Shown here: piece by piece, positions 1,623 to 1,952 of the stretch
Position numbering within the stretch: the first letter of the stretch is position 1
How the letters are laid out: every line of letters starts with the position of its first letter
IMG/VR virus record: IMGVR_UViG_2684622670_000015
Span: 1 to 3,092 of that record
Source: a virus
Taxonomy: Duplodnaviria; Heunggongvirae; Uroviricota; Caudoviricetes
Strand: one strand, 5' to 3'
DNA: 3,092 nucleotides
The notes under the pieces: generated by a model
Told to the model about the DNA's origin: nothing
The model's database searches: none
What the model saw: the letters and a program-made list of their open reading frames with translations, nothing else
Program-made: the position numbers and the translations under genes

Positions 1623-1636
1623 TTTTGACAAGATAG

Positions 1637-1658
1637 TTTTCCCCAAATTTGGGGAAAA
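1637..1658. repeat. 22-bp perfect palindrome TTTTCCCCAAATTTGGGGAAAA
   Basis: Read directly: the sequence equals its own reverse complement over 22 bp, starting 15 bp after the stop of the 879..1622 gene. No U-tract follows on either strand, so a protein-binding or recombination site is more likely than a terminator. Confidence 0.7.
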
Positions 1659-1697
1659 GCCCGAATGGCGCGGCTTACAGCAAGATAAAGACCACAT

Positions 1698-1730
1698 GAT
1701 TTGACAAATCCGCCAGAGCTATCGCATACT
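1698..1730 (+). promoter_or_regulatory. palindrome GATTTG-A-CAAATC with embedded consensus -35 TTGACA and a candidate -10
   Basis: Palindrome at 1698-1710. TTGACA at 1701-1706, 18-bp spacer, CATACT at 1725-1730 (4/6 to TATAAT). A related direct copy ATGATTTTGACAAG sits at 1619-1632, overlapping the stop of the upstream gene. Confidence 0.3.
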
Positions 1731-1758
1731 GACCGCACTAGAACACATATGCGGTCAT

Positions 1759-1786
1759 CCGCACCCGATAGCTTTGCGGCTTTTTT
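1759..1786 (+). terminator. weak candidate intrinsic terminator
   Basis: Stem CCGCA (1759-1763) / TGCGG (1775-1779) with an 11-nt loop, then C and TTTTTT (1781-1786). The long loop makes it weak. With the candidate promoter at 1701-1730 it would bound a transcript of roughly 50 nt. Confidence 0.3.
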
Positions 1787-1890
1787 ATGCCTGCAATTTG
1801 GCGTAGTTACATCCGTACAAAGGTCGGGTGGAGAGGCGTAATACAATACCCACAAGGGGAATATGCCCGGAGCTTCATATGTGGCTCTAG

Positions 1891-1922
1891 TTGACACCCG
1901 ATCACCAGCTACTAACTGGTGA
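1891..1922 (+). promoter_or_regulatory. consensus -35 hexamer followed by an inverted repeat upstream of the ORF6N-like gene
   Basis: TTGACA at 1891-1896. Inverted repeat TCACCAG (1902-1908) - 7 nt - CTGGTGA (1916-1922). I could not find a convincing -10 at 16-18 bp spacing, so this is a candidate only. Confidence 0.25.
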
Positions 1923-1952
1923 GCGTAGACTAAAACACATATGGAGAAGACT

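Follow-up and report, generated by a model that had tools for sequence, protein, structure and literature searches.

The 330-nt gap (1623-1952) between the stop codon of a 247-aa gene (1620-1622) and the ATG at 1953 in the window, a 3,092-nt stretch covering positions 1 to 3,092 of the Caudoviricetes record IMGVR_UViG_2684622670_000015, is best explained as an antisense-RNA cassette of the immI type that would control the antirepressor-like gene starting at 1953, a reading to which we give a probability of roughly 0.72. Its centrepiece is a 90-nt structured RNA (1822-1911) of the Rfam family sRNA-Xcc1, in which a variable loop is complementary both to the region of the ribosome-binding site (RBS) of this gene and to a copy of that region near the start of the predicted transcript. 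Sequence comparison establishes that the RNA belongs to the family, that it is complementary to these sites and covaries with them, that the sites hold conserved positions with respect to the RBS and the terminator, and that the setting is an antirepressor one; on the same grounds the element is of a known kind, immI- or C4-type antirepressor control, built on a known Rfam family without a previously assigned mechanism. An earlier reading made from the letters of the window alone (the sequence-only reading) had described the gap as a possible small-RNA locus and regulatory switch for the downstream ORF6N-like gene, and both suggestions are supported by the comparisons given here; the structured RNA, which is the main feature of the gap, had been overlooked.

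An sRNA-Xcc1 RNA upstream of the antirepressor-like gene

The Rfam model RF02221 (sRNA-Xcc1) matches positions 1822-1911 of the plus strand along its entire length (model positions 1-87 of 87) and scores 63.8 bits (cut-off 53; E = 1.7e-10), and the minimum free energy (MFE) fold of the segment is the same three-way-junction structure as that of Rfam (z = -2.9). A 9-bp closing stem (1822-1830 / 1895-1903) encloses hairpin 1 (1834-1868), which carries the invariant AAUACAA...ACCC-N4-GGGGAAUA, then hairpin 2 (1869-1888), with the inverted CACATATG in its variable 8-nt loop, and finally the single-stranded J segment (1889-1894), and the stem is followed by an ACCA tail (1904-1907). The hairpin-1 motif AUACAA-N-ACCC-N4-GGGGAA is exact in the window (1841-1865) and invariant in an alignment of 70 sequences, a constancy that in the retrieved set is by construction, since the motif itself served as the search query. 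The motif recurs across gamma-, beta-, alpha- and deltaproteobacterial genomes and phage contigs, and its conservation across such hosts suggests a protein or tertiary contact.

The helices are likewise maintained among the relatives. In 76 of them, 28 distinct closing-stem arms and 32 distinct hairpin-2 arms are all fully paired, with the caveat that the helix search itself selected for pairing. RNAalifold, applied to a MAFFT alignment of 70 elements in which indels misalign the helices, recovered only the invariant CCC/GGG pairs, and support for the structure was taken instead from the Rfam model and from per-sequence helix detection, where the 'own' pairing is partly circular. A homologous cassette of about 92% identity in the Stx2 phage F004 is already annotated as 'sRNA-Xcc1', and the cassette is unannotated in most of the phage records matched. 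The hairpin-2 loop of the O157 type reads CUUUGAAG.

Complementarity between the RNA loop and two target sites

The putative antisense determinant of the RNA spans 1873-1891 on the plus strand and consists of b′ CUUCAUAUGUG (1873-1883), which comprises the hairpin-2 loop and its edges, and a′ UCUAGU (1886-1891). Its downstream target, at 1929-1946 on the same strand, is composed of a2 ACUAAA (1929-1934) and b2 CACAUAUGGAG (1936-1946), and b2 covers the Shine-Dalgarno sequence GGAG (1943-1946) located 6 nt before the ATG at 1953. A second, upstream copy of the target is found at 1737-1751, also on the plus strand, where a1 ACUAGA (1737-1742) and b1 CACAUAUG (1744-1751) are again complementary to a′ and b′, so that a′ pairs with both a1 and a2. 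When the 19-nt segment 1873-1891 was scanned for duplexes against the plus strand of the whole window, minus the hairpin-2 region of the RNA itself, the best site was 1929-1946 (-18.0 kcal/mol) and the second-best 1737-1751 (-17.4 kcal/mol), and in a duplex test of the hairpin-2 region only 0.6% of shuffled targets equalled the b2 region. The folds predicted for the two partners leave both the b′ loop and b2 unpaired.

The three copies of CACATATG listed in the sequence-only reading at 1744 (plus), 1876 (inverted) and 1936 (plus) were confirmed, against an expected number of 0.07 and with none of 200 shuffles reaching three, and they correspond to the RNA loop and its two RNA targets, which does not support their earlier interpretation as operator sites for dimeric regulators. 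A further putative operator, TCACCAG-N7-CTGGTGA, is present at 1902-1922 as the conserved plus-strand RNA hairpin UCACCAG-CUACUAA-CUGGUGA (z = -2.9), which lies directly after, and overlaps, the tail of the sRNA-Xcc1 element; its pairing is kept by compensatory changes in the related loci L088, L107, L054 and L023. Other subgroups also have a hairpin at the equivalent position. The hairpin could be a structure or protection of the 3′ end, a processing signal, or a means of presenting a2.

Covariation of the loop and its targets across relatives

A search with the invariant hairpin-1 core yielded 120 stretches from phage contigs and 120 from bacterial genomes, with chance matches among the latter filtered out by fold, and perfect complements of at least 7 nt to the hairpin-2 loop were counted within 100 nt of each element in its own locus and in mismatched loci. 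Among the phage contigs, a downstream complement is present in 71% of own versus 4.2% of mismatched loci and an upstream one in 62% versus 2.2%, while the corresponding values for bacterial genomes are 54% versus 2.6% downstream and 69% versus 2.4% upstream. The J segment similarly finds its complement just past the RNA in 55% versus 6%. Over the phage and bacterial sets together, the 113 distinct loops, which are counts of loop sequences and not of evolutionary events, include 70 with a b2 site, 70 with a b1 site, 45 with both and 95 with at least one. The exact loop complements were used instead of whole-region duplex energies, which hardly separated own from mismatched loci, as GC-rich stretches dominate them. 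Family-wide, the downstream site ends 6-12 nt before a start codon, most often 9-11 nt, and the downstream genes are mostly of antirepressor families: a Pfam survey of 51 downstream proteins gave P22_AR_C in 10, pRha in 8, AntA in 7, Bro-N in 6, KilA-N in 6, P22_AR_N in 5 and ORF6N in 3.

The clearest picture comes from near-identical enterobacterial cassettes, where b1, b′ and b2 are swapped together within a backbone that is about 90% identical. Five such words occur, namely CACATATG in the window, TTCAAAG in L002, ACAAAAG in L054, AAATAAG in L088 and CACATAG in L023, and each stands at both b1 and b2 with its complement at b′. The joint replacement by words that are not palindromic fits base pairing and not a dyad-symmetric protein site. 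The alternative that the gap carries DNA operators at which dimeric repressors or Cro-like proteins regulate both the promoter and the gene downstream, as the sequence-only reading had proposed, draws on the dense dyad symmetry of the region and on the fact that both CATATG and the GATTTGACAAATC palindrome at the -35 region are palindromic in this window. The dyad symmetry is, however, not conserved at the same positions of homologous cassettes: the positions of CACATATG hold words that still match as RNA complements, the GATTTGACAAATC palindrome is broken in relatives L041 and L054, which keep the TTGACA hexamer, one of the supposed operators lies in the loop of an RNA supported by a covariance model, and the 22-bp palindrome near the left end of the gap is a relic of coding sequence (see below). 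Control by operators is consequently regarded as very improbable.

Promoter and leader

A sigma-70 promoter is predicted on the plus strand at 1701-1730, with the -35 hexamer TTGACA (1701-1706), an 18-nt spacer and the -10 hexamer CATACT (1725-1730). It matches the consensus in 10 of 12 positions and is the only such promoter-like site in the whole window, and both hexamers are kept in the relatives, including L054 with its diverged spacer. Transcription would start at about 1737, which places b1 7 nt after the presumed start. No LexA-box-like CTGT-N8-ACAG was seen near the promoter by eye. A second TTGACA, at 1891, is present as the sequence-only reading had stated; it falls within the RNA, running from the J segment into the 3′ side of the closing stem, and has no -10 element at a usable distance.

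The leader downstream of the promoter contains competing hairpins followed by a U6 run (1750-1786, plus strand), in which UGCGG at 1750-1754 and UGCGG at 1775-1779 compete for CCGCA at 1759-1763. The weak 5-bp hairpin formed by 1759-1763 and 1775-1779 and the T6 at 1781-1786 were confirmed, and their combination appears terminator-like. The proposal that the promoter and this hairpin would yield a transcript of about 50 nt is supported, as the unit is a conserved module in the alignment of relatives and the same layout of target site, CGG, hairpin and T-run occurs in 42-44 of 52 loci; CGG directly follows b1 in 44 of the 52, and the T-run begins a median of 27 nt past b1 in 42. From the end of the T-run to the RNA there are 35 nt in the window, equal to the family median. 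The Rfam models isrK (RF01394) and c4-a1b1 (RF03163) gave no match within 1690-1830 at E <= 10. In distant phages, the loop of the leader hairpin has a conserved CCCG-NN-AG motif (CCCGAUAG, CCCGUCAG or CCCGAAAG). In the window, the leader sequence CACCCGAU (1762-1769) recurs as the 3′ side of the RNA closing stem (1895-1902), which would allow pairing between the leader and the 5′ side of the stem.

Three roles can be envisaged for the a1b1 leader. By analogy with IsrK (PMC4825925), it could form a short RNA, about 50 nt in length, that serves the antisense loop as a decoy; alternatively, a1b1 could sequester the antisense loop in cis within the precursor, as predicted by the MFE structure of 1736-1960, in which a1b1 pairs with a′b′ and b2 is left free; or, as in phage P4, it could be a site of RNA-promoted termination.

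The same fold, together with the presence of all the pairing partners on a single predicted transcript, would also be compatible with a switch in the 5′ untranslated region that operates purely in cis, where alternative pairings of the Xcc1 fold, a1b1 and a2b2 within one leader open or close the RBS and no free RNA acts in trans, and the isrK-orf45 leader of Gifsy-1 provides a precedent for alternative structures that control translation (PMC4825925). Such a switch is considered unlikely, however, as the founding member of the family is a discrete 88-nt RNA, detected by rapid amplification of cDNA ends and Northern blot in Xanthomonas campestris 8004 (PMC2996969), the C4 RNA of P1 acts in trans, and the many b specificities found in near-identical backbones make most sense if cross-reaction in trans matters. 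In addition, the loci L009 (1430-1480), L021 and L098 have a consensus promoter at the 5′ end of the RNA, which in L009 reads TTGACT-17-TATAAT and ends about 5 nt before the closing stem; the RNA would there be a separate primary transcript and not a processed one. The L009 element scores 51.9 bits with the sRNA-Xcc1 model, just below the cut-off, and has no C4 match, hence no intermediate form between Xcc1 and C4 was found in it.

Comparison with known systems

The cassette most closely resembles the annotated immI region of phage P1, which contains, in this order, promoters, a1, b1, the C4 RNA, a2, b2, icd and ant, the same order of parts as in the window. In P1, too, CGG and then a hairpin with its T-run come after b1, and the distance from the T-run to C4 is 31 nt, comparable to the 35 nt noted above. 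The a2 site of P1 starts 3 nt past C4 and that of the window is also just past the 3′ end of the RNA, and b2 in P1 ends 10 nt before the icd ATG, where the Xcc1 family mostly has about 9-11 nt. The Rfam C4 consensus, with a closing stem, two hairpins, b′ in the second loop, a′ in the J segment, a UAU|GG 5′ flank and an ACC tail, follows the same plan as Xcc1, and in both systems, as seen between P1 and P7 for C4, specificity is altered by matched changes of loop and target. At the sequence level, the P1 leader aligns to window positions 1744-1800 with z = 4.0, a score that none of 1000 shuffles reached, and the a1b1-plus-terminator leader of P1, the counterpart of 1737-1786 in the window, gives a weak match to the isrK model. 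The competing leader hairpins and U6 of the window correspond to the leader of P1 and the terminator of IsrK.

There are also clear differences. Hairpin 1 of Xcc1 is longer than that of C4 and has an invariant internal loop AAUACAA/GAAUA that C4 is without, the closing stem has 9 bp in the window and 17 bp in C4, and the a and b sites are contiguous in the window, whereas those of the C4 system are about 20 nt apart. The ORF6N/P22_AR_C gene would be regulated directly, without an icd-like leader open reading frame (ORF) as in P1, and the element is located in a lambdoid, Stx-phage-like early region and not in a P1-type plasmid prophage. Rfam places C4 in clan CL00128 and lists no clan for RF02221. 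The RNA in the window would thus work like C4 and may be distantly related to it, without belonging to the C4 family.

Within its own family, the window RNA shares the fold and the hairpin-1 motif with sRNA-Xcc1 of X. campestris, which differs in lying within an integron cassette upstream of symE and has been described as trans-acting and HrpG/HrpX-controlled. The isrK-orf45-anrP region of Gifsy-1 (RF01394) is similar in that a short promoter-proximal RNA extends to an intrinsic terminator and read-through leads into an antirepressor gene, the translation of which is controlled by RNA pairing, and a processed stable RNA, STnc1160, is found downstream (PMC4825925). In contrast to the control proposed here, the short RNA of Gifsy-1 activates translation, and orf45 starts about 30 nt past IsrK, which leaves no room for an Xcc1-type RNA. 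The CI RNA of P4 is also a processed small RNA flanked by upstream and downstream copies of its target (seqA and seqC), as summarized in PMC4825925, although its outcome is the premature termination of transcription of replication genes instead of occlusion of an antirepressor RBS. The small RNAs (sRNAs) EcOnc, AsxR, AgvB and HnrS of enterohaemorrhagic Escherichia coli prophages were ruled out as this element, as they belong to other loci in the late region.

A model for antirepressor control

The arrangement of the cassette suggests the following course of events. Transcription would begin at about 1737 from the promoter at 1701-1730, and the first 15 nt of the transcript, a1 and b1, would copy the sequence around the downstream RBS. 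The weak hairpin and U6 come next, and transcripts stopping there would be about 50 nt in length, whereas those reading through would contain the sRNA-Xcc1 RNA of about 86-90 nt (1822 to about 1907). In C4-type control, RNase P generates the 5′ end of the antisense RNA, and repression of translation in trans is followed by Rho-dependent termination. By analogy with C4 and given the conserved RCC tail, RNase P may release the Xcc1 RNA by cutting where the closing stem begins; CC is found within 4 nt past the closing stem in 88% of the elements, and a UAU|G-type 5′ flank, as in C4, is common to many relatives. Its a′ and b′ would then pair with a2 and b2 (1929-1946), cover the Shine-Dalgarno sequence and block translation of the ORF6N/P22_AR_C gene, and the RNA could in addition target, in trans, an incoming phage that has the same b sequence, providing a second immunity as in P1 and P7. 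Both translational repression by occlusion of the Shine-Dalgarno sequence and action in trans are predicted properties of the cassette.

Several points weigh against this model. Every functional step at the locus is deduced from comparison of sequences, and the loci of the family are not phylogenetically independent. The pairing of a2 in the window has one mismatch, and the leader terminator is weak, its 5 bp and 11-nt loop giving -5.3 kcal/mol, no better than shuffled sequence. The ACCA tail, which would have to be free for recognition by RNase P, is tied up in the hairpin at 1902-1922. The Rfam C4 model (RF01695) has no match in the window at E <= 10, while the same search gives 68.8 bits for P1, and the relation to C4 rests on architecture and one modest leader alignment, so that the likeness could be due to convergence. 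Finally, the Xanthomonas loci L128, L135 and L185, which are near-identical to each other and may be of the same integron type as the founding member, have retained a1, b1 and the terminator of the leader and show no b2 near the downstream gene (best match 4 nt), which means that not every member of the family controls its downstream gene in this manner.

Those integron copies would suit a different proposal, put forward for Xanthomonas and Xylella virulence, in which the RNA is a trans-acting Hfq-type sRNA with host targets and its adjacency to ORF6N genes is incidental, and the literature indeed calls the family trans-acting under HrpG/HrpX control. The seed of such an RNA would nonetheless be expected to be conserved and not hypervariable, and in most loci the variable loop matches the adjacent RBS and changes along with it, which makes regulation of host targets by the window RNA quite unlikely, more so than a switch acting in cis. 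Control of the adjacent antirepressor-like gene by an antisense RNA therefore remains the preferred explanation.

Significance of the cassette

The published work on sRNA-Xcc1 treats the RNA as trans-acting or linked to virulence. The RNA has been noted upstream of an ORF6N gene in the APSE phages (PMC7313666) and upstream of symE in Xanthomonas integrons, and a paper on outer membrane vesicles of Shiga toxin-producing E. coli lists it in two genomes without expression data. No publication of loop-RBS complementarity, a mechanism with a target in cis or a link to c4 was found for sRNA-Xcc1 in the literature searched, though the connection may have been recognized before.

Matches to the conserved part of the gap (about 1631-1936) are present in 981 of 5426 complete E. 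coli genomes (about 18%), and a closely similar cassette is found in many Stx phages, among them VT2-Sakai, Min27, Stx2 phage 86 and the O104:H4 phage. Antirepressors decide the exit from lysogeny of lambdoid prophages, including the Shiga-toxin phages, and if an Xcc1-type RNA silences the antirepressor, it would add a second layer of immunity and possible cross-talk between co-resident prophages. The Rfam family of a supposed virulence sRNA would at the same time gain a testable function, and the host and plant targets predicted in the literature would need a second look. With an 8-nt loop and two matching sites setting its specificity, the element would be naturally programmable and might be of use as a compact riboregulator.

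It is conceivable, although we would put this at somewhat worse than even odds, that the whole sRNA-Xcc1 family is the antisense part of a very widespread, modular and easily re-targetable immunity cassette carried by proteobacterial phages and mobile elements. If so, a single promoter would give rise to a target-mimic leader RNA, a tRNA-like processed antisense RNA and a masked RBS, and the balance between termination and read-through in the leader would set the antirepressor output. In some integrons a toxin such as SymE would be controlled instead, and prophages sharing a host would rely on their b specificity to escape cross-talk or to make use of it.

Tandem cassettes are found in the phage contig L095, where two copies (8257-8345 and 8639-8726) about 380 bp apart differ in specificity, with the b sites GAAGTAG and AACTCAG, respectively, and each comes with a b1, a b2 and an antirepressor-like ORF of 127 aa. 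The arrangement recalls the five tandem copies of Xylella, which are also spaced by about 380 bp (PMC12189769). In phage VT2-Sakai (prophage Sp5; locus L245, about 2501-2742), the cassette is located about 300 bp from the prophage attachment site and directly upstream of H0160, a gene annotated as similar to L0142 of 933W.

A gene relic at the left end of the gap

All the motifs listed in the sequence-only reading are present in the gap, displaced by 1-2 nt at most. The 22-bp perfect palindrome was confirmed at 1637-1658, with no match in 200 shuffles; it is, however, a fragment of antA/antB coding sequence, which argues against its role as an operator. It is contained in a 53-nt segment on the plus strand (1638-1690) that shares 98% identity with the interior of an annotated antA/AntB coding sequence of E. 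coli AR_0069, where the matching segment codes for ...SPNLGKSPNGAAYSKIK... and the palindrome reads FSPNLGKS in the ancestral antA/antB frame. In the window the segment is flanked by stop codons on both sides, which identifies it as the relic of a dead antirepressor gene.

The relic is bracketed by a direct repeat, CATGATTT(T)GACAA, confirmed as CATGATTT / TTTGACAA at 1618-1631 and 1695-1707 with a 1-nt indel between the copies. The first copy, on the plus strand, overlaps the stop codon of the upstream gene, and the second forms the conserved left edge of the cassette together with its -35 region. This placement suggests that the repeat is a recombination scar, probably between antirepressor cassettes.

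Genomic context of the cassette

The window resembles the early-left arm of an E. coli prophage of the lambdoid, Stx-phage-like kind, and in the nearest genome (97% identity) the region sits between recombination genes and xis-int. A DUF551 gene (1-552) and a small gene (about 548-829) are followed by the 247-aa gene (879-1622), a homologue of which is called an ORF6N-domain protein by the Prokaryotic Genome Annotation Pipeline (PGAP), and then by the palindrome-rich gap. Downstream of the gap lies the antirepressor-like gene itself, which encodes 223 aa with ORF6N and P22_AR_C domains on the plus strand (1953-2624), then a 55-aa ORF (2667-2834) and an AlpA/excisionase-like helix-turn-helix gene. 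The start at 1953 is conserved in relatives and is also used by PGAP. An additional in-frame ATG at 1941 (MEKT-M...) is created by the b2 word CATATG and is lacking in relatives with other b words, and is thus probably a by-product of the target sequence.

The window contains no tRNA or tmRNA. Hairpins with T-runs that resemble intrinsic terminators are located at 831-852, 2627-2654 and 2824-2843, after the second, fifth and sixth ORFs, and those around it make the short ORF at 2667-2834 look like a unit of its own. On the minus strand, 2815-2942 gives a weak STnc130-like match (24 bits, with the cut-off at 55) that probably reflects the terminator.

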